A DNA stretch of 63,124 nt, the filler included. It is 3 parts of 3 records of this genome, joined end to end, with 100 filler letters (N's around TTAATTAATTAA, not from the genome) between each part and the next. Parts side by side here need not be neighbours in the genome. Positions count along the whole stretch, not along the records: positions 13,094 to 31,854 come from SRR31156797_5334; 2 more parts are not named here. One strand, given 5' to 3'. Under the pieces are notes generated by a model. The model did no database searches, was not told the DNA's origin, and saw only the letters and a list, made by a program, of their open reading frames with translations. Shown piece by piece: positions 13,424 through 33,726 of the stretch (the first letter of the stretch is position 1; every line of letters starts with the position of its first letter). The position numbers and the translations under genes are program-made.

Positions 13424-13484
13424 AACAGTAATTTTAAATTTAGTTGAATATCTTTTTAAAGTTCAAATCAATTAATCGATCATT

Positions 13485-16944: not shown

Positions 16945-17069
16945 CTACTACTAAAATTTGAAATAGATATAAATTTCAAATACTAAAAAAAATAACTAAT
17001 TTTACACCGATAGCTAATTGACTGCTATTAACTTCAACACTATAGCTTACCAACGAAAACAAATAATAA

Positions 17070-17663
17070 ATGGATTACAACACGAATAGAGAGAAACTGA
17101 TCTTACCTGAGTATGGACGACATATCCAGAAACTTGTAGATCACATGAAGGCAATTGAAGATAAAGACGAACGATCTAGATTTGCGCATGCCCTTGTTCC
17201 AATTATGGCTCAGGTTAATACAAATATTAAAGAAAATGGCGATTTCAAACATAAGCTTTGGGATCATTTATATATTATGGCTGACTTTGATCTGGATATT
17301 GATGCTCCTTACGAAATGCCTAAACGTGAAGTTCTCAATAAAAAGCCAGATAGACTGCCATACACACAAGGAAAGTTCAAGAAAAAACACTATGGTAAAA
17401 TCATTCAGAAAATGATGGACCAAATAGATAAATATGAAGGTGAAGAACAGGATGCATTGGTAGAACTTTTAGCCAATCAGCTTAAAAAATCATACGTGAA
17501 ATGGAATAAAGAATCAGTAAATGACGATGTAATTCTAAATGATTTTGTGGAGTTAGCTGAAAAAGACATTAACTTTAAAGAAGACATAAAACTTGTGGAA
17601 GCTCGCGAAATCATGTCAAAACCAAGTAAAAAGAAAAAAGTAACCCGCAAAAACCGCAAATAA
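17070..17663 (+). CDS. DUF4290 domain protein (Bacteroidetes gene typically preceding murA)
   Basis: MDYNTNREKLILPEYGRHIQK...HKLWDHL. Overlaps the murA start (TAATG). Confidence 0.85.
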   Translation: MDYNTNREKLILPEYGRHIQKLVDHMKAIEDKDERSRFAHALVPIMAQVNTNIKENGDFKHKLWDHLYIMADFDLDIDAPYEMPKREVLNKKPDRLPYTQGKFKKKHYGKIIQKMMDQIDKYEGEEQDALVELLANQLKKSYVKWNKESVNDDVILNDFVELAEKDINFKEDIKLVEAREIMSKPSKKKKVTRKNRK

Positions 17664-18970
17664 TGGCTAGTTTTGTTATTGAAGGTGGACACCAATTAAA
17701 AGGTGAAATAATCCCGCAAGGGGCAAAAAACGAAGCACTACAAGTAATATGTGCTGTATTATTAACCGACCAGGAAGTTACAATCGACAATATCCCATCC
17801 ATCAGAGACGTGCATAAGCTTATTGAGCTGTTGAGTGGAATGAATGTCAAAGTAACACAAAACAGTCCATCCTCATATACATTCAAAGCCGACGAAGTTA
17901 ACCTTGATTACCTCAAAACAGAAGAATTCAGTCAACAAAGTCAAAGCATTAGAGGTTCAATCATGATTGCCGGCCCCCTTCTTGCCCGTTTCGGAGAAGT
18001 TTTTATTCCACGTCCGGGTGGCGATAAAATTGGTCGTCGCAGATTAGACACCCATTTTGTAGGATTAAATAAACTTGGTGCCGATTTCCATTATGATGCT
18101 GAAAAAAGCGCATTTACAGCCAAAACTAAGCGTCTTAAAGGAGCTTCTATGCTATTAGAAGAAGCCAGTGTAACGGGTACAGCTAATGTATTAATGGGAG
18201 CAGTTTTAGCCGAAGGAAAAACCACTATTTATAACGCAGCTTGCGAACCATATTTGCAGCAATTATCAAAAATGTTGGTAAAGATGGGTGCTAAAATTTC
18301 TGGTATCGCTTCTAACCTTCTCATTGTTGAAGGTGTTGAAAAATTAGATGGGTGTATTCATTCTTGTTTGCCGGACATGATTGAAGTAGGTTCATTCATT
18401 GGAATGGCAGCTATGACACAAAGTGAAATCACCATCAAAAATGCAGGTATTCAGCATCTTGGAATTATCCCACGTGCTTTTGAAAAATTAGGTATTGCCT
18501 TTCGCTTCGAAAATGACGATATTCATATTCCTGCTCAGTCCAGGTACGAAATAGAAAAATTTATCGATGGGTCAATACTTACTATTGATGATGCTCCATG
18601 GCCTGGACTTACGCCAGATTTGCTTTCAATAATATTAGTGGTAGCAACCCAGGCCAATGGAAGTGTTGTAATCCATCAAAAAATGTTTGAATCCAGACTA
18701 TTTTTCGTTGATAAATTAATTGATATGGGTGCACAAATTATTTTATGTGACCCACATAGAGCTACAGTTATTGGAACTAACCGAGCCAATAAATTAAGAC
18801 CAACAGTTATGACCAGCCCTGACATCAGAGCGGGAGTTGCATTACTTATTGCTGCCCTCTCTGCCGATGGAGTTAGCCAAATTCACAATATTGAACAAAT
18901 AGACCGTGGATACCAAAATATTGACGGCAGATTAAATGCACTTGGCGCAAAAATTACCAGATTACAATAA
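17663..18970 (+). CDS. murA: UDP-N-acetylglucosamine 1-carboxyvinyltransferase
   Basis: QGAKNEAL, PGGDKIGRR, SVTGTAN, MFESR, SPDIRAG, IDRGY. Confidence 0.96.
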   Translation: MASFVIEGGHQLKGEIIPQGAKNEALQVICAVLLTDQEVTIDNIPSIRDVHKLIELLSGMNVKVTQNSPSSYTFKADEVNLDYLKTEEFSQQSQSIRGSIMIAGPLLARFGEVFIPRPGGDKIGRRRLDTHFVGLNKLGADFHYDAEKSAFTAKTKRLKGASMLLEEASVTGTANVLMGAVLAEGKTTIYNAACEPYLQQLSKMLVKMGAKISGIASNLLIVEGVEKLDGCIHSCLPDMIEVGSFIGMAAMTQSEITIKNAGIQHLGIIPRAFEKLGIAFRFENDDIHIPAQSRYEIEKFIDGSILTIDDAPWPGLTPDLLSIILVVATQANGSVVIHQKMFESRLFFVDKLIDMGAQIILCDPHRATVIGTNRANKLRPTVMTSPDIRAGVALLIAALSADGVSQIHNIEQIDRGYQNIDGRLNALGAKITRLQ

Positions 18971-19021
18971 AACAATCTGGGAAGTTTATCGTTAGCCATT
19001 AAAATGAAATAACCAACCTAT

Positions 19022-19531
19022 ATGAGACTAATTTTTGCTATTTTTCTAACAACCACATTAACTTTCGCTTACGGTCAACAAACTGGAACGCAAATCGGAC
19101 AAATTGCACCTGAAATTACCAATACAACTCCCAATGGGAAACAACTATCACTTTCAGAATTAAAAGGCAAATTGGTATTGATTGATTTTTGGGCATCATG
19201 GTGTAGACCTTGTCGTTACGAAAACCCAAATCTTGTAAATGCATATAACAAATTCAAAGACAAAGAATTTGTCAATGGATCAGGATTCACAATTTTCAGT
19301 GTTTCATTGGACAAGAATAAAAAACAATGGATTGAAGCCATCAAAGCTGACAATCTGGTGTGGGAATATCATGTTAGTGATTTAAAAGGATGGTATGCGA
19401 TGCCAGCTCAAAAATATGGTGTAAGAAGCATTCCAAGTAACTTCCTAATTGATGAAAATGGGAAAATTGTAGCCAAAGACTTGCGTGGACCAAGATTAGA
19501 AGATGTATTAAAACAATTGGAGAAAAAGTAA
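19022..19531 (+). CDS. TlpA/ResA-like thiol-disulfide oxidoreductase
   Basis: Signal peptide, LIDFWASWCRPCR, IPSNFLID..GKI. Confidence 0.9.
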   Translation: MRLIFAIFLTTTLTFAYGQQTGTQIGQIAPEITNTTPNGKQLSLSELKGKLVLIDFWASWCRPCRYENPNLVNAYNKFKDKEFVNGSGFTIFSVSLDKNKKQWIEAIKADNLVWEYHVSDLKGWYAMPAQKYGVRSIPSNFLIDENGKIVAKDLRGPRLEDVLKQLEKK

Positions 19532-19532
19532 A

Positions 19533-20810
19533 CTATTTAATATAGAGTTTCAACATTTGTTCAATGGCATCTTGGCAGGCTACACAAAACCCTTCTGCTG
19601 TATTGGTATTCATTTTGCAATCCATTGATGGACTATAAACACCTTTTGACATATATGCACCTCCTTCAAAAACCCCTGTTTTACCTTTATATTTATTATC
19701 TCTAGGTGTTGGAACGGGTGTTCCTTTAGAAATTAAATCTTTCCATTTACCATCAAAAGCAACAAGCGTTGTAATATTCGGATTCCAGGGTTCTTTCTTC
19801 GTATCGAGCATATCTTCATAACTCACTTCACTATCATAATATTCGTCAGCCAAACCACCAAAATGATGACCAAATTCATGTACAAACACTTCTTCGCCCC
19901 AATCACTATCTGCAGCAAAAACAGAAAAATGATTGAAAATTCCCCCACCACCATAACGCTTGGTATTAACCATAATTAAAGCATAATCATATGGAGCTGA
20001 AGCAGCCACATCTTTCATTTTAAAATATTCGGTAATAGTAAGGTAACGTGAAAGATTTAAAGAATTAAAATGACTATTTAAAGCTGTGTTTTTATAAATC
20101 TCTTTCCGTGGTTCTGTTGTACCAGGTTCCATTGACTCCGGATGAACTAACCAAATATTAATTCCGGATTTATATTTATTAAAAGGTTTTTGCGAAAGCA
20201 AATATTTTGCAAATCTTTTGGTATCCTCAATTGCTTTAATTGAATCTGAAACTAAATAACCCTCTGCTATAAAAACCAAATCCAAACTATTAGATGGCTC
20301 TCCTTTACCTAAAATTCTTTGAGCTTTATAAATAGGATTCTTCTTTATGAAAAACTCTTTCTGAGGATTGATATTCCATGCACTTAATAGTTCAAACCCA
20401 TCTTTTTTTCGCAAGCGCAACTCCACTTTTATCTTATTTTTCGGAAATGGAATATTAATTGACTGCTCAAAACTTACAGGTCCTTTTCGAGTTAAGGCTG
20501 TAGTTTGCCATTCTTCAAATAAAGTTGAAAAACCGTTTCTAAAAATAAGCTGACCATTCTCACTGTAAACATCTAACCTGTATGTACCGTAGTCCATAGG
20601 CCAAACTAAACTCTTTTCATTACCAGACCAGTGCGGCTCTTCTATCAAATTTACCAAACCTGCAGTCTGGGAAGATTTTGTTCCCGTCAAAATAAAATCA
20701 ATTCGCAAAGACTTGTTGAAATTAAAGAAATCTGAAGGCTCGCTTTGAGCTAAAATTGGCTGACTAAATAAATAAATTAGTAAACTAAAAAATATGCTTA
20801 TTCTTATCAT
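19533..20810 (-). CDS. Peptidase M64 (IgA peptidase-like) metalloprotease
   Basis: Signal peptide, VFIAEGY, YGGGG, HEFGHHFGGLADEY, C-terminal CKM...FCVAC. Confidence 0.9.
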   Translation of the reverse strand: MIRISIFFSLLIYLFSQPILAQSEPSDFFNFNKSLRIDFILTGTKSSQTAGLVNLIEEPHWSGNEKSLVWPMDYGTYRLDVYSENGQLIFRNGFSTLFEEWQTTALTRKGPVSFEQSINIPFPKNKIKVELRLRKKDGFELLSAWNINPQKEFFIKKNPIYKAQRILGKGEPSNSLDLVFIAEGYLVSDSIKAIEDTKRFAKYLLSQKPFNKYKSGINIWLVHPESMEPGTTEPRKEIYKNTALNSHFNSLNLSRYLTITEYFKMKDVAASAPYDYALIMVNTKRYGGGGIFNHFSVFAADSDWGEEVFVHEFGHHFGGLADEYYDSEVSYEDMLDTKKEPWNPNITTLVAFDGKWKDLISKGTPVPTPRDNKYKGKTGVFEGGAYMSKGVYSPSMDCKMNTNTAEGFCVACQDAIEQMLKLYIK

Positions 20811-20850
20811 TTTTACTTATTTTCGTTTAAAATAACAAAATTAATGCCCA

Positions 20851-22110
20851 ATGGAAAAATTTGAGATGATATTTAAAGGTTGGCTTGAGTCAACAGGTAT
20901 GACTACTGACATAGTAAATATATTGTACATAGCTTCAAATATAATTGCTATTGCCTTAATTAGCATCATTGCAGACTGGATTGCAAAAAAAATCATTCTG
21001 CAAACTATAAAACATATTGTTCAAAGATCAAAAGTAACCTGGGACGACATCATTTATGAGCGCAAAGTATTTAATAGATTAAGTCGCCTCGCCCCTGCCA
21101 TTGTAATTTATTATCTCATAGCGATTGCTTTTCCAGATGCACCGGGTTGGGTGGCCTTTATTCAAAAACTAACCTATATCTACATGGTATTGGTTGGTAT
21201 TCTGGTATTAGATTCCTTCATAAACGCCTTACATGAAATTTACAAACAAACTCCTATCTCCAAAGACCGCTCGATTAAAGGTTATGTACAGGTAGTCCAA
21301 ATTGTTGTTTATTTCTTTGGTATCATAATTATTTTGGCGGTATTGCTTGGAAAATCACCTGGAACCTTATTGGCTGGTTTGGGAGCTTTAGCTGCTGTAC
21401 TCATGTTAGTATTTAAGGATAGTATCCTTGGTCTAGTGGCTGGTATACAATTATCATTAAATAAAATGGTAAAAATTGGAGATTGGATCACAATGCCTAG
21501 CCATAAGGCTGATGGAAATGTTATTGAAATTACTTTGAATACTGTAAAAGTACGAAACTTTGACATGACGATTACCACCATTCCAACATACGCGCTGGTA
21601 TCGCAATCATTCAATAATTGGAGCGGCATGTTGGAATCAGGCGGACGAAGAATAAAAAGGTCCATTAACATAGATTTACGCTCAGTTAAATTTTGTTCAG
21701 AAGAACTATTAGATAAACTTGAAAAGATACACCACCTTACTGACTATATTAAAGAAAGAAGAGCCGAAGTTGCTGAATTTAATAAAAGCAAAGGGGTAGA
21801 CCAGAGTATAATGGCTAATGGACGCAGACTTACAAACATTGGAATATTTAGAAAGTATATAGAAGAATATTTGAAAAATCACCCACAAATTAACATGGAC
21901 ATGACGTTTCTCATTCGTCAATTGGAACCAACTGAAATGGGCGTGCCAATTGAAATCTATGTATTCAGTAAAGAGCAAAGATGGGTACAATATGAAGGAA
22001 TTCAAGGAGATATTTTTGATCACTTATTAGCTGCAATTAATGAATTTGAATTAAGATTATATCAAAATCCAAGTGGAAGTGATTTCGCCGAATTTATCGA
22101 TAACAAATAG
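20851..22110 (+). CDS. Mechanosensitive channel, MscS family (YbdG/MscM-like)
   Basis: TM helices, LVFKDSILGLVAGIQ, GDWI, TVKVRNFD, SGGRRIKRS. Confidence 0.9.
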   Translation: MEKFEMIFKGWLESTGMTTDIVNILYIASNIIAIALISIIADWIAKKIILQTIKHIVQRSKVTWDDIIYERKVFNRLSRLAPAIVIYYLIAIAFPDAPGWVAFIQKLTYIYMVLVGILVLDSFINALHEIYKQTPISKDRSIKGYVQVVQIVVYFFGIIIILAVLLGKSPGTLLAGLGALAAVLMLVFKDSILGLVAGIQLSLNKMVKIGDWITMPSHKADGNVIEITLNTVKVRNFDMTITTIPTYALVSQSFNNWSGMLESGGRRIKRSINIDLRSVKFCSEELLDKLEKIHHLTDYIKERRAEVAEFNKSKGVDQSIMANGRRLTNIGIFRKYIEEYLKNHPQINMDMTFLIRQLEPTEMGVPIEIYVFSKEQRWVQYEGIQGDIFDHLLAAINEFELRLYQNPSGSDFAEFIDNK

Positions 22111-22132
22111 GATTAAAAACTGAGTCAAAATA

Positions 22133-22169
22133 AAAATCAGCAATTTGAACAATTCAAATTGCTGATTTT
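22133..22169. terminator. Bidirectional terminator between the convergent mscS and crp/fnr genes
   Basis: AAAATCAGCAATTTGAA-CAA-TTCAAATTGCTGATTTT, a long perfect stem. Confidence 0.75.
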
Positions 22170-22188
22170 GTTTTATGTGGAATTTACA

Positions 22189-22875
22189 CTAACCTATTTC
22201 GCTAAACTTCTGAAGTTTATTCATGTCTAATATTTTAAAAGCTTTTCCTTCAACAGCAATAATCTTCTCTTCCTTAAACTCTTTAATAGCCCGGGATAAT
22301 GTTTCCTGTGATAACTGCGTAAGCTCACTCAAATCTTTTCTACTGATTGTTAAAACAAATTCATCTGATTGGTAAATTCGTTCTGAGAGACATAATAGTA
22401 TATCAGCTAACTTTCCTGCTACTTGTTTTTGTGTAAGTGTAATTATTCGTTCATAAACTCTTGTGGCCCACAAATTCATAATTTGCATTAACGAAGCAGC
22501 AAATTTTCCATTTTGCTCTATCATTTGCTCAAACATATCAGCCTCAAACATGCAAAACTCTGAATCTTCATAAGTTGTACAAGTATAGGGGTAAACCCTA
22601 TCATTAAATAAAGCCTCAAGACCAATGAAACTTTGGCCGGGTTTAATACAAAAGATTACGTCTTTATTGGGATGTTCTAAATAAGTTTTAACAAGGCCTT
22701 CTTTAAGGAATAAAATTTTAGATGCATACACTCCCTGCTTGCAGATTACCTCTCCCTTACGATATACAACTGTTTTATGCTTTTCCTGCACAAGTTTTTG
22801 TTGCTCTTCAAGCAAATTAACAAAACAACTTGATATACAAGCGCAATCTTTACAATTCGTACTACTCATATCCAT
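22189..22875 (-). CDS. Crp/Fnr-family regulator with an N-terminal Cys cluster (FNR-like)
   Basis: N-terminal CKDCACISSC, a cNMP-like domain, and HTH recognition helix SQETLSR (FNR-type E-x-x-S-R). Confidence 0.9.
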   Translation of the reverse strand: MDMSSTNCKDCACISSCFVNLLEEQQKLVQEKHKTVVYRKGEVICKQGVYASKILFLKEGLVKTYLEHPNKDVIFCIKPGQSFIGLEALFNDRVYPYTCTTYEDSEFCMFEADMFEQMIEQNGKFAASLMQIMNLWATRVYERIITLTQKQVAGKLADILLCLSERIYQSDEFVLTISRKDLSELTQLSQETLSRAIKEFKEEKIIAVEGKAFKILDMNKLQKFSEIG

Positions 22876-22922
22876 TAAATTAATCTATAACGAAGATAAT
22901 AAATATTCCATCAAATAATGTA

Positions 22923-22936
22923 TTGATCTAGATCAA
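22923..22936. promoter_or_regulatory. Perfect FNR box in the divergent promoter region
   Basis: TTGATCTAGATCAA equals TTGAT-N4-ATCAA and is fully palindromic. Confidence 0.8.
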
Positions 22937-23140
22937 AAATGTGATTAATCTGCTTCGGATTCTTTCTTGAGACGCCTGTTAACGATAATTTAACTTATGA
23001 TTTTTTTTTAATATAGTTTTACATATCCTGCAATTATCAAGAGATACAGGACAATTAAAATTAAACAAACAAGCGGGAAATCAAACAATTAAAGAATTAA
23101 CAATTAACTATAAAAAATCACCATTAACACTACAATTACT

Positions 23141-24736
23141 ATGAATAGACTTAAAAATGTACTAGCCACAATAATTTTTACGGTGATATTACCGATAGGA
23201 GTTTTGTGGTTAACATTTACAATTGCATCGTTGGAAAACGAACCGTTGCCTATTGAGATTAACCTCAAGGCAAATGAGATCTCATCAGTAGATCATTCTC
23301 AATTTGAAGTGTTACAACGCGAATTTGTTGACCCAAGAGAAGTTACAGAAACTTGCTTGTCTTGCCACAATGGTCGCGATGAAGAAATTATGGCCACAGC
23401 CCACTGGAATTGGTTAAGAGATACTGAAGTTCCCGGACATGGAGAAGTTAGTATTGGTAAGAAAAACCTTATTAATAATTTTTGTACGGGTGTAATCGGA
23501 AATAACGGATCATGTATGCGCTGTCATATTGGATACGGATGGGAAGATGACTCTTTCGATTTTGGCGATCCAAAAAACATTGACTGTCTTGTATGTCATG
23601 ATAATACTGAAACATATTTTAAACAAAAAGGACAATACGGATGGCCTGCAACTGAAGAAACTGCAAATGACGCATATCAGGTACCTGATTATTCATATGT
23701 AGCGTCAAATGTAGGTGCACCTAAAAAGAACAATTGTGGTATTTGTCATTTCTATGGTGGTGGTGGAAACAATGTGAAGCATGGTGATTTAGAGCAAGCT
23801 TTAGTAGGTTGCAAAAGAGAAGTAGATGTTCACATGACAGCTGAAGGACTTGACATGACATGTATAGATTGTCATACAACAGAAAACCACAATATTAAAG
23901 GTAAATTATATTCTGTATCAGCAATGGACACAAACCGTATTACATGTACGCAGTGCCATACAAGTGAGCCTCACCAGGATATGATTTTGGACCGTCACTA
24001 TGCCAAAGTAACTTGTCAGGCCTGTCATATTCCAAGATATGCCAAAGTTAATGCGACTAAAATGTGGTGGGATTATTCAACTGCAGGTCGATTAAATGAA
24101 GATGGACTGCCAATTGCTGAAGATGATGCTGATGGAAATCACAATTATCTCTCAATTAAAGGTTCATTTGTTTGGGATCAAAATACCGAGCCGGATTATG
24201 TATGGTTTAATGGAACGGCTGATCACTTTTTATTTGAAGACACTATTGAAACTATCCCTGTTAAGATAAACGAGCTAATGGGCGACTATCATGATGAGAA
24301 AGCCAAAATTTGGCCGGTTAAAATTCACAAGGGTAGACAGCCTTATGATCCTGTGAATAATACCCTTATTAGTTTAAAAGTTTGGGCTCCTGAAAAAGGC
24401 ATGGGTGCATTTTGGAAAGATTTTGATTTTGGACCAGCTGCAGAAATAGGAATGGAACTGGCCGGTAGAGAATACAGCGGAGAATATGATTTTGTTGAAA
24501 CAGAAGTATTTTGGCCAATTAACCACATGGTATCTCCTAAAGAGGATGTAGTTTCATGTACTGAATGTCACTCCAGAGATGGACGTTTAGAAAATCTTAA
24601 CGGATTTTATTTACCAGGTCGTGATTACAACAAAGCCGTAAATTATGGTGGATTTGCATTAATCATATTATCTCTATTGGGTGTAATTGGCCACGGAATA
24701 GGTAGAATCATTTTTTCAATTCGCAGAAACAAATAA
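23141..24736 (+). CDS. otr: Octaheme c-type cytochrome, tetrathionate reductase (Otr) family
   Basis: Eight CxxCH motifs (CLSCH, CMRCH, CLVCH, CGICH, CIDCH, CTQCH, CQACH, CTECH), Otr-type GKKNLINNFC and GGGGNNVKHGDL, and hydrophobic N- and C-terminal anchors. Confidence 0.9.
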   Translation: MNRLKNVLATIIFTVILPIGVLWLTFTIASLENEPLPIEINLKANEISSVDHSQFEVLQREFVDPREVTETCLSCHNGRDEEIMATAHWNWLRDTEVPGHGEVSIGKKNLINNFCTGVIGNNGSCMRCHIGYGWEDDSFDFGDPKNIDCLVCHDNTETYFKQKGQYGWPATEETANDAYQVPDYSYVASNVGAPKKNNCGICHFYGGGGNNVKHGDLEQALVGCKREVDVHMTAEGLDMTCIDCHTTENHNIKGKLYSVSAMDTNRITCTQCHTSEPHQDMILDRHYAKVTCQACHIPRYAKVNATKMWWDYSTAGRLNEDGLPIAEDDADGNHNYLSIKGSFVWDQNTEPDYVWFNGTADHFLFEDTIETIPVKINELMGDYHDEKAKIWPVKIHKGRQPYDPVNNTLISLKVWAPEKGMGAFWKDFDFGPAAEIGMELAGREYSGEYDFVETEVFWPINHMVSPKEDVVSCTECHSRDGRLENLNGFYLPGRDYNKAVNYGGFALIILSLLGVIGHGIGRIIFSIRRNK

Positions 24737-24748
24737 AATCAGAAAACA

Positions 24749-25378
24749 ATGAAAAAAGTTAAGATATATAGCAAATACGAAAGATTTTGGCACTGGACAC
24801 AAATGCTACTGATCATTCTGTTAATTGTAACAGGATTTGAAATTCATGGCATGTATGAAGCATTTGGTTATGAAGCTTCAGTTAGATTACACTCCGTTGC
24901 AGGTTGGGTATTCCTTGTATTAGCAGTTTTCACTGCATTCTGGATGCTTGTAACCGGCCAAAGTCGACAATTTATACCTATTAGAAAGAATGTTAAGTCT
25001 CAAATTCTCTATTATTTATCAGGTATATTCAGAAAAGAACCACATCCAGTTGAAAAAACTGCCGATTGTAAATTAAATCCATTGCAAAGAATTGTGTACT
25101 TCGGACTTTTAATCTTGATCTTCCCAGTACAAATGGTCACTGGATTTATATATATGTATTTCCACTATTCAGATAATGTATTGGATTTACAATCTCTTGA
25201 ACCTATTGCAGTTATTCATACGCTTGGGGCATTCTTGCTAGTGGTGTTTATAATTGTACACCTTTATTTAATCACAACTGGTCATACTGTATTCACAAAT
25301 CTTTGGTCAATGATAACAGGTTATGAAAAATTAGATTGTGATGATCCAGAACCACAAACAGAAACAGCAACCAAATAA
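24749..25378 (+). CDS. Di-heme cytochrome b membrane subunit (PhsC / NiFe-hydrogenase b-type)
   Basis: ERFWHW..ITGFEIHG-like N-terminus (VTGFEIHG), RLHS, KLNPLQR, IHTLGAF..IVHLY. Four TM helices with His ligands. Confidence 0.88.
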   Translation: MKKVKIYSKYERFWHWTQMLLIILLIVTGFEIHGMYEAFGYEASVRLHSVAGWVFLVLAVFTAFWMLVTGQSRQFIPIRKNVKSQILYYLSGIFRKEPHPVEKTADCKLNPLQRIVYFGLLILIFPVQMVTGFIYMYFHYSDNVLDLQSLEPIAVIHTLGAFLLVVFIIVHLYLITTGHTVFTNLWSMITGYEKLDCDDPEPQTETATK

Positions 25379-25397
25379 TCAGAAATACCAATTAACT

Positions 25398-25916
25398 ATG
25401 AAGAAAATAATAATATTAGGACTCATTTTAGGGTCATTCATTTTAAGCAGCTGTACTTCCGGTGTAGGAAATGCAACAGCTGACCAGTTAGTTGAACAAG
25501 CATCTAAGGAAATAAAAATTATTACTCCTGAAGAGCTTTTCAATATTATGGACGCAGGTGAAGAAATCTTTACCTTAATTGATGTAAGAACTGCAATGGA
25601 ATACTATCCAGGCTACATTCCAGGAGCAGTATTAATTAACAGAGGATCTTTGGAATTTAAAATTTTAAAAGAATCATTCTGGGAAGAAGCAGGTTTATAT
25701 ATGCCTAAAAAAGACGAAAAGGTAGTAGTGTATTGCAAAAAAGGTAGCCGAGCTGCCCTTGCTGCAAAAACCCTGAAAGAAATGGGCTTTACAAATGTAT
25801 ATTCCTTAGAAGGTGGTTTCAAAAATTGGGAACTCACTTATCCTGACTGGACAGAGAAAAACCTCGAAGCAATGGGCGGAGGATCATCTACTCACGACAT
25901 GGGCGGAGGTTGCTAA
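25398..25916 (+). CDS. Single-domain rhodanese lipoprotein with a C-terminal GGGC tail
   Basis: Lipobox FILSSC, LIDVR..EY..GYIPGA, active loop YCKKGSRA, SLEGGF..W. Ends HDMGGGC-stop. Start moved to ATG 25398. Confidence 0.88.
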   Translation: MKKIIILGLILGSFILSSCTSGVGNATADQLVEQASKEIKIITPEELFNIMDAGEEIFTLIDVRTAMEYYPGYIPGAVLINRGSLEFKILKESFWEEAGLYMPKKDEKVVVYCKKGSRAALAAKTLKEMGFTNVYSLEGGFKNWELTYPDWTEKNLEAMGGGSSTHDMGGGC

Positions 25917-25964
25917 ACATAGACAATTAACCTAACTATTATTCAATAACTTAAAACAACAATT

Positions 25965-26951
25965 ATGAAAAATTTGAAATTATTATTGATCGCTTTCTTA
26001 ATCCCAACAATTCTTTTTACAGCTTGTAAAGATGAAACAAATGATGATAACAACACATCACAATCATCTCATGAAATTCTTGCTGCTTACCTTGTGGAAA
26101 ATGATATGGATTTACCAGATGTTGTAGATGCATGGATTCAGGGAGCACCTGCTTTAGCAGATGTAGCAACATTTATTGATTCATACAACATTATTGACAT
26201 TCGCAGTTCAGCTGATTACGATGCCGGTCATATTGAAGGAGCAGTAAACTCAGCATTAACAGATGTAATTACAACTGCTGGTGAATTTACAGAAACAAAA
26301 CCAGTTTTGGTTGTTTGTTACACAGGACAAACTGCTGGACATGCTGTAGTTGCCTTACGCTTAAGCGGTTACCCAGATGCTAAGGTTTTGAAATGGGGTA
26401 TGGCTGGATGGCGCACTGGCGACGACTATTCTGGCAAATGGGAATCAAAAACTGCTCAATTAAATCATTCAAATTGGGTATCAACAGGTACTGCTGCGAC
26501 AACTGTTCCTTTTACAGCTCCTGACTTAAGTATTTCTGGTAGTGATGCTGAAGCGTTATTAAATGCACAAGTGGCTTCTATGCTTGCGGGTGGATTATCA
26601 GGTGAAATGCCATCTACTATTTTAGATGCTCCACAAGATTATTTTATCAATAACTTTTGGTCAGAAACTGATTTTAACACTTATGGTCATATTGACGGAT
26701 GCTATAGAATTAATTCTTTAAGCCTAGAAGAAGAAACTATTTATAACCTTGACTCAGAAAAACCAGTTGTAACTTATTGCTGGACTGGACAAACTTCTTC
26801 TATGATTACTGCTTATTTAACAGTAATTGGTTATGATGCAGTTAGCTTAAAATTTGGTGCTAATGGAATTATTCATGACGATTTAACCGCAGCTGGTGTT
26901 CACTTTTACTCAGAACCAACTGAAGATTTACCAGTTGTACCAACAAAATAA
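25965..26951 (+). CDS. Tandem-rhodanese lipoprotein
   Basis: Lipobox LFTAC then KDETNDD. IIDIR..DYDAGHIEGA. Two Cys loops, CYTGQTA and CWTGQTS. Confidence 0.85.
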   Translation: MKNLKLLLIAFLIPTILFTACKDETNDDNNTSQSSHEILAAYLVENDMDLPDVVDAWIQGAPALADVATFIDSYNIIDIRSSADYDAGHIEGAVNSALTDVITTAGEFTETKPVLVVCYTGQTAGHAVVALRLSGYPDAKVLKWGMAGWRTGDDYSGKWESKTAQLNHSNWVSTGTAATTVPFTAPDLSISGSDAEALLNAQVASMLAGGLSGEMPSTILDAPQDYFINNFWSETDFNTYGHIDGCYRINSLSLEEETIYNLDSEKPVVTYCWTGQTSSMITAYLTVIGYDAVSLKFGANGIIHDDLTAAGVHFYSEPTEDLPVVPTK

Positions 26952-26958
26952 TACATTT

Positions 26959-26990
26959 TAACGGATAGGCTAGCGCCTATCCGTTATTTT
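26959..26990 (+). terminator. Intra-operon hairpin/terminator between the tandem rhodanese and the porin
   Basis: TAACGGATAGGC-TAGC-GCCTATCCGTTA-TTTT. Confidence 0.65.
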
Positions 26991-27041
26991 ATAAAACAAG
27001 CATACCCCTGCTTGCTTAAGTAGAACATTAAATCAATTAAC

Positions 27042-28106
27042 ATGAACTATAAAACTATACTTTTAGCAATTCTTCTCATGGGTGCATGGCAGGGATTGTT
27101 TGCACAAGGCTGCGAAGAACCAGCCGGTGATGCAGAAGGTGACGATGCCAATAAACCAAAACTTATCGGTTTCATTCAACCACAATTTGACTATAACTTT
27201 GTAAAAGATGGACCTGATACTTACGATGAAAACACCTTTAAATTTAAACGTGCTCGTATTGGTGTAACAGGTAAAATTCCTTACGACTTCGCATACTATG
27301 TAATGGTAGAAAATAGTGCATTTGTAAGTTCAACAGGAAATCCATACTTACTTGATGCATTTATCTCTTACAGGCGTTTTAAATGGGCTAATGTTTCATT
27401 CGGATCATTTAAACAACCATTTGGCCTTGAAATTAATACATCTTGCTCTGGATTGCATACTATTGAAAGATCAGAGGTTTCTAACCAATTAGTATCTCCT
27501 ATGCGAGACATGGGTGTTATGATACTTGGTGGAACTAATGAAACATTAGTGAAATATGCAGTCGCTTTTATGAATGGAAGTGGTTTGGGAAAAGTTGATA
27601 ATAACATCAAAAAAGATGTTTCCGGTCGAATTACCTTTAAACCAATTGATTTCGTAAGATTCGGTGGTAGCTTCAGATATGGTTGGCCAACAAATTCTAA
27701 TGCCGACTCAATTGACAGATTTTCACTTGCAGGAGAATTAGAAGTAAATTGGAATAATTTTATGCTCCAGGCAGAATATATCTGGGATAAAGGAGCATAT
27801 AATCTTGCCAGTGGTGGTGGTTGCGGAGGTGACCCAATGCTGCTAGGTGAAAAACGCGGTGGTTACTATATAATGGCTAAATATAAAACATATTTTATGT
27901 TTGAGCCAGTTGTAAAATATGAATTCTTCGATGTTGGAAATGATTCAGGTGACAAAAGTGGAATTTTAACATTAGGAGCAAATTACTTTTTCAATGACAA
28001 AGTAAGGCTTCAAGCAAACTACCGTTATCGTGCAGAAACAAATGATGCAAAAGATGCAGAAGTTCCAAATGATGCCTTCCTATTACAATTACAAGTTAAA
28101 TTCTAA
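27042..28106 (+). CDS. OprO/OprP-like (anion-selective) outer-membrane porin with Cys motifs
   Basis: Signal peptide, FKFKRARIGVTG, LLDAFISY, GSFKQPFGLE, RDMG, LGANYF, and C-terminal LQLQVKF (beta-barrel signal). Confidence 0.8.
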   Translation: MNYKTILLAILLMGAWQGLFAQGCEEPAGDAEGDDANKPKLIGFIQPQFDYNFVKDGPDTYDENTFKFKRARIGVTGKIPYDFAYYVMVENSAFVSSTGNPYLLDAFISYRRFKWANVSFGSFKQPFGLEINTSCSGLHTIERSEVSNQLVSPMRDMGVMILGGTNETLVKYAVAFMNGSGLGKVDNNIKKDVSGRITFKPIDFVRFGGSFRYGWPTNSNADSIDRFSLAGELEVNWNNFMLQAEYIWDKGAYNLASGGGCGGDPMLLGEKRGGYYIMAKYKTYFMFEPVVKYEFFDVGNDSGDKSGILTLGANYFFNDKVRLQANYRYRAETNDAKDAEVPNDAFLLQLQVKF

Positions 28107-28121
28107 AAAAAACTATTTATC

Positions 28122-28952
28122 ATGAGAAAAATATTTTTATCAATCACATTTGTACTGTTCCTCGTAAGTTCAATGCTAGCGCAGGATGTTATTTCTGCCA
28201 TGGACTTATTCAAGGAATCAAGAAAACCTAATGTAGTTATCGTTGACGCTCGTAGCGATGCTAAATATAAAGCTGATGCACACATCAGAAACGCTGTGCA
28301 TGTACCTTACACTGAACTTCAGAAAGATGCTCCTTACAAGGGTGCTTTAAAAAGTCCAACAGAAATCGCTCAGGTTTTAGGAAAAAATGGTGTATCTGCT
28401 GACAAAAAAATAGTTGTATATGACGAGGGTTCTGGTAAATATGCCGGACGTTTATACTGGATATTAAAGTATATGGGCGCAAAAGATGTAGTAATGCTCG
28501 ACGGAGGATTAGAAGCATGGAAAGCGAAAAGAAAACCTATTACGAAAAATCCTACTATGGCTAAAAAAGGCCAATTTAAAGCAGCACCAAATGCAGCTAT
28601 TCTAGCTAAAATGGCTGATGTTAAAAAAGGTTCTGCGGTATTACTTGACGTTCGTTCAGCAGCAGAATTCAATGGAACTGATGGAAAAAGTAAAGGTCAC
28701 GTACCAGGTTCTATCAACATTGAATATAAAGAAGTTTTGGACGGAAATGGTATGCTAAAGAGCAATTCCGATCTTGGTAGCGTTTTCAGCAAACTAGGTG
28801 GAAAAAATAAAGAAATTATTGTATTCTGTGCAACAAGTGTACGTGCAGGGGTTGTTTTCCTTGCATTAAAAGGCGCAGGTTACACAAACGTTAAAGTTTA
28901 TGATGGTGCGTACAACGAGTGGGTACATGCCGGTAATAAGCTGGATAAATAG
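28122..28952 (+). CDS. Exported two-domain sulfurtransferase (TST/SseA-like)
   Basis: Sec signal peptide, IVDAR..Y...HIRNA, GRLYWILKYMG..LDGG, LLDVRS..EF..GHVPGS, active loop FCATSVRA, YDGAYNEW. Confidence 0.9.
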   Translation: MRKIFLSITFVLFLVSSMLAQDVISAMDLFKESRKPNVVIVDARSDAKYKADAHIRNAVHVPYTELQKDAPYKGALKSPTEIAQVLGKNGVSADKKIVVYDEGSGKYAGRLYWILKYMGAKDVVMLDGGLEAWKAKRKPITKNPTMAKKGQFKAAPNAAILAKMADVKKGSAVLLDVRSAAEFNGTDGKSKGHVPGSINIEYKEVLDGNGMLKSNSDLGSVFSKLGGKNKEIIVFCATSVRAGVVFLALKGAGYTNVKVYDGAYNEWVHAGNKLDK

Positions 28953-28968
28953 TTAATTGTTAATTGGG

Positions 28969-29001
28969 AAAACCGCTTCAGTTTCTGGGGCGGTTTTTTT
29001 T
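28969..29001 (+). terminator. Rho-independent terminator ending the otr-rhodanese-porin operon
   Basis: AAAACCGCTTCAG-TTT-CTGGGGCGGTTTTTTTT. Confidence 0.8.
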
Positions 29002-29171
29002 ATTGAAATTTTAAAACATCAATCTGAATTTCATTTATATAAAATATCTGATAGTAATTCAAAACCAGATCAATTAAAACAAATCAAATATTTTTTTGCA
29101 TATCCGCTAACTCCGCTACTTGCCTAAGCATTATACTCCAAGAAACTCCAATACACTCTCCACGCTCCCAG

Positions 29172-29206
29172 TTCACTTTTCACTATAAACTATTAACTAT
29201 TCACTA
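29172..29206 (+). repeat. Degenerate 7-bp tandem repeat (TTCACTA) x5 in a C-rich, G-poor intergenic tract
   Basis: ttcactt ttcacta taaacta ttaacta ttcacta. Confidence 0.7.
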
Positions 29207-29349
29207 TTCTCGACTATCTGCAATCTACTATCTAAGCCAAACCTTCGCATTCAAAAAACTCCAAATCACAAATTCTTAAAACTGATTGGTCAAATATTTG
29301 TTGTATTAACATTTATTGCGCAAACAATTTTTAATTTTGTAGACGTTTA

Positions 29350-30468
29350 ATGAATAAAACCAAAAATTCACAAACCATGTTACAACGTTTAATTACAATC
29401 ATCGCAACCCTAACAATATCATTCACAGTGCTAAACGCACAACAACAAGGGCCTTATATAGCTTTTGATAAAGTCGTTCACGATTATGGAAAAATCAAAG
29501 AGAATGATGGAATTGCCAAATACCAGTTTGAATTTACAAACACCGGTAGTGCTCCATTAATCATCAATGAAGTAAAACCTACTTGTGGATGTACCAGTTC
29601 TGAATATACCAAAAAGCCTGTAAGTCCGGGAGAAAAAGGGTTTATTTCTGCTGAGTTTAACCCCAAAAATCGTCCCGGTCCATTTAACAAAACAATTAGA
29701 GTTTTTACCAATTCTGCAACAAATCCAAATGTTGTACTCAGAATTAAAGGTGACGTACAACCTAAACCTCGCTCAATTGAAGATGATTATCCAAGAAGTA
29801 TGGGGCCATTGCGTTTCGACAATACCCAATTTGCTTTTATGAATATCTCAAATAAGGAGAAAAGAATGAGCACAGTTAAGTTTATAAATGCTTCAGAAGA
29901 AGAGCTTACACTTGAATTTGGAAATCTTCCTGCTTATTTGGACGTTACAATAAATCCTAAGACAGTAAAGCCCGGTGAAACAGGAGAAATCCAAACCACA
30001 TTCCTTGGAGATAAAGCAAATGACCTTGGCTACATAAGAGGTAGAATGTCATTAAAAATAAATGGAGATATCAATCCCCGACATAATATGGTAGTTACAG
30101 CTTTGGTAAACGAAGATTTCTCTCATTTGTCTGAAGAAGAGCTTGCAAACGCTCCACATATTAAATTTGAAAATGAAAAATTTGAATTTGGCACTATCAC
30201 TGAGGGTGAAAAAGTAACACACGAATTCAAATTCACCAATACGGGTAAAAGCGACCTTATCATTCGTAAAGTTCATGCTAGTTGTGGATGCACAGCTGTA
30301 GCACCACCTAAAAAGGCTATTAAACCAGGAGAAACCAGTTCTATTAAAGCTACTTTCAACTCTAGAGGAAAACACAACAGACAGCATAAAACAATTCGTA
30401 TTTATGCCAACGACCCTGAAAATAGTATATCTACTCTAATTATTAGAGGAGAAGTAAAAAAAAAGTAA
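29350..30468 (+). CDS. DUF1573 domain protein (three Ig-like domains)
   Basis: Two repeats of F.FTNTG..PL/DLII..V..(T/S)CGCT. Signal peptide; the start may be MLQRL at 29377. Confidence 0.88.
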   Translation: MNKTKNSQTMLQRLITIIATLTISFTVLNAQQQGPYIAFDKVVHDYGKIKENDGIAKYQFEFTNTGSAPLIINEVKPTCGCTSSEYTKKPVSPGEKGFISAEFNPKNRPGPFNKTIRVFTNSATNPNVVLRIKGDVQPKPRSIEDDYPRSMGPLRFDNTQFAFMNISNKEKRMSTVKFINASEEELTLEFGNLPAYLDVTINPKTVKPGETGEIQTTFLGDKANDLGYIRGRMSLKINGDINPRHNMVVTALVNEDFSHLSEEELANAPHIKFENEKFEFGTITEGEKVTHEFKFTNTGKSDLIIRKVHASCGCTAVAPPKKAIKPGETSSIKATFNSRGKHNRQHKTIRIYANDPENSISTLIIRGEVKKK

Positions 30469-30499
30469 AAGCGCAGGAGCTTAGAATATATTAAAACAG

Positions 30500-30526
30500 A
30501 AGAGGGCGAAAAGCCCTCTTTTTTTT
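30500..30526 (+). terminator. Rho-independent terminator
   Basis: AAGAGGGC-GAAAA-GCCCTCTT followed by a T-run. Confidence 0.8.
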
Positions 30527-30658
30527 ATATTAACATATATCTTTATAAGGATAAACACTGCATTTTATAGGCAAAAAACACCTTACATATTTTTCGCACC
30601 AAACAAAAAGGTATTTACTTTGTAGATTATAAATCAATCTGAAAAGATCACATAATCA

Positions 30659-31750
30659 ATGTCTGATAAAAAAGAACCATATAAAAGTGCACTCAAAGTA
30701 AATGAGGGTGTAAATCAACCACCCAGCATTAGCCCCAGTGCACGCCATAATTTTAAACGGTTTCGTAAAAAAGAGCTAACACTTGACGAATACTACGATG
30801 GCATTGTAAATGGTAATCGTAGCATATTAAGCCGAGCTATCACATTAGTTGAAAGTGCTTTGCCAGTGCATCAGGAAATGGCTCAGCAGATTATAGAAAA
30901 GTGTATTCCCCTTTCAGGTAACTCTATACGAATTGGGATTACAGGCGTGCCGGGTGTTGGAAAAAGTACATTTATTGAATCACTCGGTACTGAAATAACT
31001 TCAAGAGGACATAAACTCGCTGTTTTAGCTATTGACCCAAGTAGTGAACGTTCAAAGGGTTCTATTTTAGGAGATAAAACACGAATGGAAAACTTATCCA
31101 GTAATCCTCATGCATTTATTCGCCCCTCACCTTCAGCTGGCTCTCTGGGAGGAGTAGCTAGAAAAACGCGTGAGTCAATGATACTTTGCGAGGCAGCAGG
31201 TTTCGATACTATTTTTATCGAAACGGTAGGTGTTGGACAAAGTGAAACAGCCGTGCATTCCATGGTTGATTTCTTTTTACTCCTTATGCTTGCTGGCGCA
31301 GGAGATGAATTGCAAGGCATTAAACGAGGAATTATGGAAATGGCTGATGCCATTGCTATCAACAAAGCTGACGGAACAAATAAAGATAAAGCCAATCGTG
31401 CCAAAGCTGAATACACTAGTGCATTGCATCTCTTCCCTCCTTCTCCATCAAAATGGTCACCAAAAGTGGTTACATGTTCGGCATTGCATCACATTGATAT
31501 TAACCGAGTTTGGGATACTATTAACGACTATAAAAAACTCACACAGGAAAACCAGTATTGGTTCCACAAACGCAAAGAACAGTCCCGCTATTGGATGTAT
31601 GAAACCATTAATGAGCAACTGCGCAATAATTTTTATCATAATGATGAAATATCGAAAGAGTTAAAAAATGCCGAAGACGATGTATTAAGCAATAAGCTAA
31701 GCTCCTTTCAGGCTGCACAGAAACTGCTCGACGAGTATTTTAAAAGATGA
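30659..31750 (+). CDS. meaB: Methylmalonyl-CoA mutase-associated GTPase MeaB/ArgK
   Basis: GITGVPGVGKST, DPSS..KGSILGDKTRM, ETVGVGQSE, GDELQGIKRG, NKADG. Confidence 0.93.
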   Translation: MSDKKEPYKSALKVNEGVNQPPSISPSARHNFKRFRKKELTLDEYYDGIVNGNRSILSRAITLVESALPVHQEMAQQIIEKCIPLSGNSIRIGITGVPGVGKSTFIESLGTEITSRGHKLAVLAIDPSSERSKGSILGDKTRMENLSSNPHAFIRPSPSAGSLGGVARKTRESMILCEAAGFDTIFIETVGVGQSETAVHSMVDFFLLLMLAGAGDELQGIKRGIMEMADAIAINKADGTNKDKANRAKAEYTSALHLFPPSPSKWSPKVVTCSALHHIDINRVWDTINDYKKLTQENQYWFHKRKEQSRYWMYETINEQLRNNFYHNDEISKELKNAEDDVLSNKLSSFQAAQKLLDEYFKR

Positions 31751-31769
31751 GGTTTCAATCAAAAAGAGA

Positions 31770-31854
31770 ACAGAATACAGAATACAGAATGCAGAATACA
31801 GAATACAGAGGACAGAAAACAGAGAACAGAATACAGAAAACAGAAGACAGAAAA
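31770..31854 (+). repeat. 7-bp tandem repeat (ACAGAAT consensus) x12 at the contig end
   Basis: acagaat x3, gcagaat, acagaat, acagagg, acagaaa, acagaga, acagaat, acagaaa, acagaag, acagaaa, running into the linker. Confidence 0.9.
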
Positions 31855-31954
31855 NNNNNNNNNNNNNNNNNNNNNNNNNNNNNNNNNNNNNNNNNNNNTT
31901 AATTAATTAANNNNNNNNNNNNNNNNNNNNNNNNNNNNNNNNNNNNNNNNNNNN
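31855..31954. other. Artificial contig linker (N44-TTAATTAATTAA-N44)
   Basis: Identical to the linker at 12994-13093. Confidence 0.98.
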
Positions 31955-33712
31955 CATGGGTGTCCTGATTTCATGGCTCATGTTTGCAAGGAATGCTGAT
32001 TTCAGCCGGTCGGATTCTTCGGCTTTGGCCCTGGCCTGTTCAAGAGCCCGGTTTTTTTGGATACGCTCTATAAATGTACCCACATTGTTGGCAATGATTT
32101 CGAGGGTTTCCAGGTCATTTTGATTGTAGGCATCGCGGTTGTGGTAATCCTGTATAGCCAGCACACCCAAAACTTCATTGTTGTCGGCATTTATCAATGG
32201 CGCTCCAAGCCAAACACTGCTTTCGTTTCCAACAAGTTTGATCTCATTCTTTTCCGTGAGTTCTTTTTTATTTATGTGGTTTATTATTTGCCCCTTTCCT
32301 TTTCGTCTCACATAATCGGTCAGGCTGCCTTTAATGTCAATCGCGTCATTTGATTCCCAGTTTTCGGTTTCATCTTCAAAATAGGGGAAAGTATATTTAT
32401 CATTATCTTTTTGGTATAAAGCCACAAAGAGGTTTCTGGCAGGCATAATGCTGGCCACCTGCCGGTGCATCATTTCAAGGAAATCATGAAAGCTCAGATC
32501 CATTTGTGATACTTTGGATATTTCGTACAGGACATTGCGGATTTGTTCCGACTTGTTTTGTTCGGTAATATCGGTTATAATAGAAAACAGGTATGTTTTG
32601 CCATTTATCAGATTTGGAGTTGAATGCACTTCTACATCTTTTACAGTGCCATTTTTTGTGACATGTTTAAATTGGAACTTATTGGCCTGGAACTTATGCG
32701 CCTGCTTCATTTTTTTAATCACTTCCGGCTTCGAAAGCTGATTTAAATTAAAAATGGAAAATTTTGAAAATTCTTCTTTTGTGTAACCATAAAATTCTTC
32801 GGCAGCTTTATTGGCGTTTTTAATGCTACCATCATCAGGATCAATCAATAGCATAACCGCATTGTGATTTTCAAACAGGTTCCTGAATCGGTTTTCACTT
32901 TCTACAAGTTTGCTATGTTGCTCCTTGCTTTTGGTAATGTCTTCAGAGATAATCTGAACACCAATTATTTGCTTGTTGTCATCTTTTATTCGGGCATAAG
33001 TACTTCTAAACCAATAAGATTTGTTGTTGATCATTAGATTATCGTCGTAAGCTTGTGTTTTGTTGCTTTTCAGGGCGATTTTCATCCTGCGCATATATTC
33101 TTCAGCCTGTTTCACCGGAAATATATCAAAAATGCTTTTCCCACTAAAGTCGGATGGTATTCCACCCATTGTTTTGGCTGCCATATCGTTATAGGAAATT
33201 ACCATTCCATTCGGTTTGTAATAGCCAACCCGTAATCCGGAATGCTCATGCAACAGTCGGTAACGTTGTTCATTCTCAACCACAGCAAATTCAGCCTTTT
33301 TGCGTTCACTGATATCGATTGCCGAGGCAGCCAAATATTCGGGATTTCCGTCCTGATCATAAATTGTTAAACCCGTCATAAGCATCGGAAACCTGGTTCC
33401 ATCCTTATGCAGGTGCCATACCTCCTCATGCTCATACCCGCCTTCTTTTATCAGCATTTGGTTTAATTTTATTACTCTGGGAAGTTGGTCTTCACTGTGA
33501 AAAACGGATAGATTTTTCCCAATCAACGCTTCTTTTTTATACCCATGGATTTCAGCAAAGTACCTGTTCAGGTATAAAATATTGCCCTCTTCGTCTGTAA
33601 TGGCACTGCCATAAAGTGATTTTTCAAGCACAGTCCTGAAGATTGAATTTTCTGCTGCCTCCAGCTTTTGCCTCTTCTCTGCTATTTTCCTGCTTTCATT
33701 TGTTTTTTTCAT
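31955..33712 (-). CDS. PAS-PAS-PAS-GAF sensor histidine kinase (3' truncated at the contig edge)
   Basis: Three PAS repeats, a GAF domain (WLGAPL..VLGVLAIQ), then ESDRLKSAFLANMSHEIRTPM up to the gap. Confidence 0.88.
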
Positions 33713-33726
33713 AGCCTTTTTGTTGG

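Follow-up and report, generated by a model that had tools for sequence, protein, structure and literature searches.

The subject of this study is a gene cluster at positions 22189–29001 of a DNA window of 63,124 nucleotides (nt; the whole stretch analysed, filler included), inside the part SRR31156797_5334 (13,094–31,854). The cluster is real and conserved, and encodes an FNR-like regulator, an octaheme cytochrome c of the Otr family, a cytochrome b, two rhodanese lipoproteins (Rh1 and Rh2), a porin of the OprP fold and a TST-type sulfurtransferase. Its main interest lies in the porin, more than in Otr. Three cysteines, which the initial annotation passed over, are conserved in this porin and predicted to sit outside, inside and below the pore, and in several relatives one of them gives way to an in-frame TGA codon that is predicted to encode selenocysteine (Sec). 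The proposal put forward here, which we hold at roughly even strength, is that of an anoxia-induced conduit for sulfane sulfur across the outer membrane, coupled in this cluster to a quinol-fed Otr reductase.

The porin and its three cysteines

The porin gene (27042–28106, plus strand) matches PF07396 with 90.8 bits against a gathering score of 20.9. The structural model of its product is a 16-stranded barrel (predicted local distance difference test score, pLDDT, 90.2) for which the closest fold is OprP (PDB 2O4V; Z 29.1, root-mean-square deviation 2.6, 294 residues aligned), and 15 Arg/Lys positions are conserved. The cysteine codons are located at 27111 (Cys24), 27444 (Cys135) and 27822 (Cys261, TGC here). 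Conservation was read from an alignment of 127 sequences consisting of the best 120 of 480 homologues, the window copy and six loci. Of these, 126 retain Cys24, the exception being a fragment, and all 127 retain Cys135 and Cys261, the count for Cys261 including four rows that are shifted by one column.

Judged from strand order, Cys24 precedes strand 1 on the N-terminal arm, Cys135 lies in loop 3, the long loop joining strands 5 and 6, and loop 6, which is rich in Gly and joins strands 11 and 12, carries Cys261. Assuming that general porin topology applies, Cys24 would be periplasmic, Cys135 folded into the pore and Cys261 extracellular. The N-terminal arm comprises 8–21 residues and loop 6 19–23 residues, and by a rough estimate both can reach mid-barrel; the two Cys-bearing arms are flexible, with pLDDT values of 57 and 66. 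None of the three cysteines occurs at these places in the nine nearest outgroup porins, all weak matches, and among 150 cluster representatives the full-length sequences at greater distance lack them as well. Five of the nine outgroup porins adjoin phosphate-type ABC-transporter genes; the sulfur-gene context of the porin described here appears to point away from a phosphate role. The conservation of three cysteines in a porin of the OprP fold is new here. A literature search, with most subscription papers outside its reach, returned no description of the whole architecture or of a selenocysteine porin.

Selenocysteine forms of the porin

Porin genes were searched for in 301 genomes from the order of Roseimarinus sediminis, a match of E 1e-90 or better being counted as strong. 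Strong matches were obtained in 42 of these genomes, and 8 more gave weak matches only. In six of the 42 (G224, G114, G261, G248, G207 and G091) a single in-frame TGA stands precisely in the place of the Cys261 codon, and the reading frame continues from there to the terminal Phe. In a quick tree of the porins, from which L140 was omitted for its broken frame, the TGA forms fall in at least three separate places, interspersed with Cys forms; since two pairs of the TGA genomes are close kin, the independent count is three or four.

The TGA forms coincide with the machinery for selenocysteine insertion. A selA gene is present in 5/6 TGA-type compared to 3/36 Cys-type genomes (Fisher p 3.7e-4, uncorrected for kinship), selB in all five TGA genomes tested, G207 included, and tRNA-Sec in five of the six. 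For G207, neither selA nor tRNA-Sec was matched and selB alone was found, so that each of the six encodes selA or selB. All six TGA porins fold a hairpin shortly after the UGA, with a stability no greater than in the Cys genes. Three database representatives of the porin stop just before Cys261, which is the expected outcome if the UGA is read as a stop. A pseudogene origin of the TGA was rejected, as the same codon recurs in several lineages with an open frame beyond it and with Sec machinery. Among the 80 metagenome porins compared, none has a TGA at Cys261; one (L215) has an unrelated TGA at position 183. Taken together, the alignment of the in-frame TGA with conserved Cys261 and the presence of Sec machinery predict a selenocysteine porin in these relatives. 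Exchange between Sec and Cys marks a reactive residue. A 2026 review of prokaryotic selenoproteins nowhere uses the terms 'porin' or 'Bacteroid' in its main text, to which this statement is limited (PMC13188914); the review lists two other outer-membrane barrels, namely a protein of the MtrB/PioB family and a TonB-dependent receptor (PMC13188914).

As a side observation, selA was found in 8 of 46 genomes of the Bacteroidota sample (G224, G114, G261, G248, G091, G069, G027 and G098; loci L150–L157), with tRNA-Sec beside selA in five of these loci.

The rhodanese carriers

Rh2 (25965–26951, plus strand; PF00581 twice) is a tandem rhodanese lipoprotein with two active-site cysteines (Cys118 and Cys272) that are invariant in 41/41 sequences. 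Its lipidated Cys21 is followed by a Lys and two acidic residues at positions +2 to +4. A K-(D/E)2 motif, with +3 as optimal position, has been reported as the surface-export signal of Bacteroidetes lipoproteins by Lauber et al. (PMC5080379), and Rh2 is likely displayed on the cell surface. Porin loci were compared in 41 genomes (R. sediminis left out) and in the best 80 of 401 confirmed metagenome loci, among which redundancy was kept in. Where at least 1300 nt of flank were available, Rh2 immediately precedes the porin in every case (38/38 genome and 60/60 metagenome loci, 98/98 together). The pairing of a presumed surface rhodanese with a porin, as claimed in the initial annotation, is supported by conservation and context. 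Rh2 is doubled to a four-domain protein of ~630 amino acids (aa) in L008, L118, L120 and L127, and two Rh2 units also occur in many metagenome loci.

Rh1 (25398–25916, plus strand; PF00581) is a lipoprotein with one rhodanese domain. Its active-site Cys113 and the flexible Gly-Gly-Cys arm at its C-terminus are both invariant in 11/11 aligned sequences. As it lacks the acidic export signal, Rh1 probably faces the periplasm. The two-domain TST-type sulfurtransferase (28122–28952, plus strand; PF00581 twice) has a catalytic Cys236 and an N-terminal hydrophobic signal stretch without a lipobox, and is presumed to be soluble and periplasmic. Its best NCBIfam match is MST (140.8 bits, below the cut-off of 250). 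The gene is present in 34/38 genome porin loci and in merely 17/62 metagenome porin loci. Conservation and context support the sulfur-carrier chemistry that had been proposed for these proteins.

Conservation and modularity of the cassette

A neighbourhood search based on Otr yielded 71 loci, of which eight hold the complete cassette (L001, L002, L004, L005, L008, L009, L010 and L026); the cultured Roseimarinus sediminis DSM 28824, which also has a PsrA-like gene, is among the carriers. Three loci (L003, L006 and L016) are cut off by a contig edge. In L007, whose Otr is the closest (80% identity) and whose flanking genes are the same, and in L011, the cassette breaks off after Rh1; the genome of L007 gave no porin match. 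Otr is present in 61 of the 301 genomes of the order and occurs together with the porin in 19, leaving 23/42 porin genomes without an Otr match and 42/61 Otr genomes without the porin. In a phylum-wide draw the porin was found in 3/401 genomes. The expectation that porin and rhodaneses would be co-conserved with Otr is therefore not supported, and the seven-gene set as an obligate unit was rejected, as its modules occur apart.

The partners of the porin vary. A PsrA-like gene, with PDB 2VPW as best solved match (E 7.9e-193) and a score below the PhsA cut-off, lies beside the porin in 4/41 genome and 20/80 metagenome loci. A fused YeeE occurs with TusA, DsrE, MvhD and HdrA, YeeE being present in 11/41 and HdrA in 8/41 genome porin loci, and a split YeeE is found in 18/80 metagenome porin loci. 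A flavoprotein that we take to be SQR-like, Pfam giving Pyr_redox_2 alone, occurs in 21/80 metagenome and 0/41 genome porin loci. Because Rh2 always precedes the porin while the partners vary, the conserved unit is Rh2–porin; the cluster is thus better described as two modules than as one, with Otr–cytochrome b–Rh1 apparently one of several exchangeable sinks.

Two further arrangements were observed around these loci. In L106, L107, L110, L128, L132 and L135–L137 the gene order is TusA-YeeE-Rh1-Rh2-porin-TST-Rh1-DsrE-TusA-MvhD-HdrA-HdrA, with HdrB and HdrC not among the recurring neighbours; this cluster looks like a full sulfur route from surface to cytoplasm with HdrA/MvhD as sink. In L009, L010, L011, L016, L026, L113, L114 and L127 a fused cytochrome b/multiheme gene that is ExtP-ExtM-like (NF040943 and NF040969, below cut-off) lies near the cassette, as a further tie to the ext cluster of Geobacter. 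Several of these loci also contain a small gene, Rieske-like in appearance.

Otr and cytochrome b

Otr (23141–24736, plus strand) scores 579 bits on TIGR04315 (cut-off 375), contains eight CxxCH motifs and matches PDB 1SP3 with E 3.9e-119, in agreement with its first assignment as an Otr-family octaheme cytochrome. Hydropathy indicates hydrophobic anchors at both the N- and the C-terminus. Lys107, Cys115, Asn210 and Lys213 align with Lys56, Cys64, Asp150 and Lys153 of 1SP3. Cys115, as the equivalent of Cys64, presumably lines the heme II pocket. Lys56 of 1SP3 is a heme II ligand (PMC3769277), and the corresponding position is Lys in 76 of 77 Otr homologues. In the same set, the Asp150 position holds Asn in 40/77, and position 115 is Cys in 69/77 and TGA in 8/77. 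The TGA forms are those of L047, L053, L059, L060, L062, L063, L064 and L069, each with a hairpin after the codon, and the named records among them are mostly Desulfobacterota. An earlier listing of GenBank-annotated selenoproteins includes Sec-type Otr (PMC13188914).

The cytochrome b561 (24749–25378, plus strand) is a PhsC-like, four-helix protein with four hydrophobic segments; it satisfies PF01292 and scores 108.5 bits on the PhsC model (NF011582), below the cut-off of 204. It is presumed to be the menaquinol oxidiser. Neighbours were counted in 52 Otr loci with 3 kb of sequence downstream: cytochrome b is present in 39 of these, and a rhodanese, YeeE, porin or Cys-tail gene in 30, across many phyla. 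Cys tails as such were found in 25/52 Otr loci compared to 0/146 open reading frames (ORFs) of outgroup loci. Carrier genes near Otr and the Cys/TGA exchange at position 115 would favour S-S chemistry, as in MccSep, and the quinol linkage through cytochrome b, which had been claimed at the outset, appears sound on the same grounds of conservation and context. As a side observation, the cytochrome b is ~380 aa long in L008, L009, L010, L011, L118, L119 and L125; the one from L118, the sole one tested, has a C-terminal PAS domain, suggesting a sensory fusion.

Regulation and transcript structure

All seven ORFs, the divergent FNR-like regulator among them, were recovered in their stated order, together with the terminator at the cluster end, as initially annotated. 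The regulator gene (22189–22875, minus strand; PF00027 and PF13545) encodes Cys8, Cys11, Cys13, Cys17 and Cys108 and an FNR-type recognition helix. Its best NCBIfam match is Fnr (NF008365; 62.5 bits, below the cut-off of 228). It fits what we take to be the pattern of FNR-like O2 sensors, with an N-terminal Cys cluster, a central Cys, the helix and the box, and is likely an O2-sensing Fe-S protein. A perfect FNR box (22923–22936, no strand assigned; 10/10) is separated from the regulator start by 47 nt and from the otr start by ~200 nt, and is the sole 10/10 box in the 63-kb window when scored with the consensus that we assume. Of 44 regions lying upstream of FNR homologues, 22 contain a box of at least 9/10 by the same consensus, and FNR linkage is seen in 24/41 genome porin loci. 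FNR control of the cluster is supported by context and conservation. Membership of the FNR, PhsC, ExtI and ExtH families was rejected, all scores being below the curated cut-offs.

The intrinsic terminator at the cluster end (28966–29001, plus strand) has a folding energy of −21.9 kcal/mol (z −5.8), and 0/200 shuffles were equally stable. A terminator-like hairpin with a T-run between Rh2 and the porin (26959–26986, plus strand; −19.8 kcal/mol, z −7.0) is as strong, and 20/50 loci show at this place a hairpin that has a T-run and a folding energy of −13 kcal/mol or lower, a count made without shuffle control. Of the single co-oriented unit that had been described, orientation and end terminator hold; 'one unit' can be kept only with a qualification, because the strong hairpin with its T-run, not mentioned there, separates Rh2 from the porin. 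The internal hairpin may be a device yielding more Rh2 than porin. Matches to the −7 promoter pattern that we assume for Bacteroidetes number 74 compared to 69.6 expected by chance, with none in the fnr–otr gap or the Rh2–porin gap, and a sigma-70 promoter scan gave chance level. Two FNR-like boxes of 9/10 (15220–15233 and 15299–15312), 79 nt apart within a UvrD gene, are probably due to chance.

Comparison with known systems

The closest known system is Geobacter extHIJKL. The extHIJKLMNOPQS cluster encodes the rhodanese lipoprotein ExtH, the porin ExtI and ExtKL/MccSep (PMC5877670; PMC13510729). MccSep is a proven, Mo-free polysulfide reductase, and the route of polysulfide across the outer membrane is called unclear in the 2026 MccSep paper (PMC13510729). 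In both clusters a rhodanese lipoprotein gene directly precedes an OprP-like porin, a Gly-Gly-Cys tail is present (on ExtH in Geobacter, on Rh1 here), and a multiheme Cys/Sec enzyme is accompanied by a cytochrome b. Porin Cys135 aligns column for column with Cys145 of Geobacteraceae ExtI (probability 96%, three ExtI copies). In mature ExtI the loop-3 Cys stands alone in two of the three copies read, the third having an extra Cys near the C-terminus; the porin described here adds two Cys arms, one of them a Sec site. It also differs from ExtI in its score on NF040900 (54.1 bits, cut-off 150), as does TST from ExtH (51.9 bits, cut-off 200). Rh2 gave no match to the ExtH model and is weakly ExtH-like (probability 67%), with two active-site cysteines. 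In contrast to Geobacter, the terminal enzyme here is Otr, Psr-like or Hdr-linked, and MccSep was found by tblastn in 0/121 porin loci.

Otr shares with its Shewanella oneidensis counterpart (1SP3) the eight hemes, the heme II Lys ligand and the equivalents of Cys64 and Lys153. An Otr with a cytochrome b561 has been recorded in an Ignavibacteriae genome (PMC7509429). Compared to the S. oneidensis enzyme, the Otr of the window has membrane anchors at both ends, carries Asn at the Asp150 position, and comes with its own cytochrome b and with sulfur carriers.

The Psr/Sud system of Wolinella consists of a polysulfide reductase with a periplasmic sulfur carrier. PsrABC, as in the Thermus thermophilus enzyme (PDB 2VPW), resembles the present system in quinol-fed periplasmic S-S reduction and rhodanese carriers, and many loci have PsrABC-like genes next to this porin, in the place of the sink, whereas the cluster in the window lacks a molybdoenzyme. 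For Deferribacter, admission of polysulfide by a porin and a rhodanese is suggested in one sentence (PMC6896113). This suggestion aside, the literature consulted describes no outer-membrane step for Psr. The porin shares its 16-stranded fold and many conserved basic residues with OprP/OprO (PF07396, 2O4V), and differs from them in the three conserved Cys/Sec positions and in a sulfur-gene instead of a phosphate-transport context.

YeeE/TsuA is an inner-membrane thiosulfate transporter in which a three-cysteine relay hands over to TusA or a rhodanese. The porin is similar to it in having three conserved cysteines spaced along a transport path, although the fold is an outer-membrane beta-barrel as opposed to a helical inner-membrane protein.

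Proposed mechanism and alternatives

In the mechanism that we propose, surface-exposed Rh2 would load sulfane sulfur from polysulfide or elemental sulfur (S0) onto its two catalytic cysteines. Within the porin, the sulfur would be handed over covalently from Cys/Sec261 in the outer loop to Cys135 in the constriction loop and on to Cys24 on the periplasmic arm; the residue placement derives from the model and from conservation, and the chemistry is conjectural. Viewed in reverse, the same exchange would move reducing equivalents outwards. TST and the Cys-tipped Rh1 arm would then ferry the persulfide to the sink. In the least certain step, membrane-anchored Otr would cleave the S-S bond at the Cys115/heme II site and release sulfide, with electrons passing from menaquinol via cytochrome b to Otr. 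In other genomes the same conduit would serve PsrABC-like, YeeE-TusA-DsrE-Hdr or SQR-like partners. Localisation, direction of flow, covalent transfer and the role of Otr are the elements that we infer. That the first three steps constitute a sulfur conduit appears fairly probable. A covalent relay through the modelled pore is a serious possibility just short of an even chance, and much the same holds for Otr as the sink. More tentative, and perhaps somewhat doubtful, is the general statement that the porin family acts as a covalent carrier by thiol/selenol exchange, fed by a surface rhodanese, rather than as a passive hole.

Several observations weigh against this proposal. Otr adjoins the porin in just 6/41 genome and 8/80 metagenome loci. 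A PsrA-like gene is also present in six of the nine full-cassette genomes searched, a count that leaves out G002, which has no porin, and the PsrA-like enzyme could be the real sink; three full-cassette genomes (G005, G049 and G282) gave no match to the PsrA-like query. The molybdenum independence of the route, proposed in the initial annotation, is weakened by these genes, and 'no molybdenum route' was rejected as a property of these organisms. Otr is also described as a nitrite reductase (PMC7509429; PMC13510729), and Caldithrix abyssi holds both Otr and Psr, with growth tests that gave no support for sulfur respiration (PMC5317091). The strict export signal, read by eye, is present in just 13/34 Rh2 homologues and in 0/27 Rh1 homologues. 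A structural or gating disulfide may join two of the three porin cysteines, and the internal hairpin may leave porin and TST expressed apart from otr. The porin of the window is itself a Cys form (TGC), not a Sec form, and the hairpins after the TGA are no stabler than those at the corresponding place in the Cys genes (6 compared to 44, p 0.13; 100 mononucleotide shuffles).

Among the alternatives, the cluster might combine two modules under one FNR promoter, with Rh2–porin–TST serving a Psr or cytoplasmic route elsewhere and Otr–cytochrome b acting separately on a carrier-free small anion such as nitrite, nitric oxide, hydroxylamine or tetrathionate. The separability of the modules, the recurrence of the internal hairpin in 20/50 loci, the PsrA-like gene in trans in 6/9 full-cassette genomes and the promiscuity of Otr (PMC13510729; PMC7509429) all fit this explanation, which we nonetheless consider rather unlikely: Rh1 and its Cys arm remain beside Otr also in loci that lack the porin block (L007 and L011), sulfur carriers are recruited in 30/52 Otr loci, Cys115 of Otr switches with Sec, Otr is enriched in porin genomes (19/42 compared to 42/259, p 9e-5, kinship uncorrected), and 3/9 full-cassette genomes have no PsrA match.

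A conduit that is directed outwards or acts only as an electron sink is improbable. It would export sulfane sulfur derived from sulfide for detoxification, or dump fermentation electrons on sulfur without energy conservation, and it draws on the reversibility of thiol-persulfide exchange, on the presumed SQR-like flavoprotein in 21/80 metagenome porin loci and on the finding that sulfur merely stimulated fermentation in C. abyssi (PMC5317091). However, FNR linkage (24/41) and reductive partners (PsrA-like, Hdr and Otr–cytochrome b) are common, and the SQR-like gene is found in 0/41 genome loci. In another reading, which we find equally improbable, the porin works as a plain anion channel of the kind proposed for ExtI, passing thiosulfate, polythionates or selenite/tellurite. 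Its cysteines would then pair in a disulfide of structural or gating function, and the rhodaneses would act after free diffusion. The OprP fold and the 15 conserved Arg/Lys positions agree with such a channel, as does the reduced selenite and tellurite reduction upon loss of extI (PMC5877670). Yet the number of cysteines is odd (three), Sec substitutes one of them in several lineages, and two are located on flexible arms (pLDDT 57 and 66); the loop-3 Cys needs no partner, because ExtI keeps it alone in two of three copies.

Other features of the window

Downstream of the cluster, at 29350–30468, lies a gene for a DUF1573 protein that scores above the cut-off of the OS_HP2 (seleno)protein domain and is a Cys form; it also flanks the L007 cassette. 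Positions 1141–10166 (minus strand) encode ETF, a CCG-domain protein, an NADH:flavin oxidoreductase, a DUF5943 protein, a peptidase M19 and an AraC-type regulator, resembling what we take to be a glycine betaine/dimethylglycine catabolic set. At 31907–42853 the minus strand has three long ORFs, of which at least two encode PAS-rich histidine kinases, and the first has an assembly gap of N at its end.

Implications

How polysulfide crosses the outer membrane is a question to which the porin family, present in 42 of the 301 genomes sampled from a single order, offers an answer that names individual residues and can be tested. If the proposal is true, the family would fill the outer-membrane gap in the respiration of elemental sulfur. 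The TGA forms would then be the first selenocysteine porins of the OprP family, in Bacteroidota, and an outer-membrane porin would join the selenoproteome. With Otr as the sink, the physiological substrate of Otr would be a carrier-bound persulfide, and the cassette opens a direct test of Otr function in cells. Sediment Bacteroidota are usually regarded as fermenters; the cluster points to them as active sulfur reducers.

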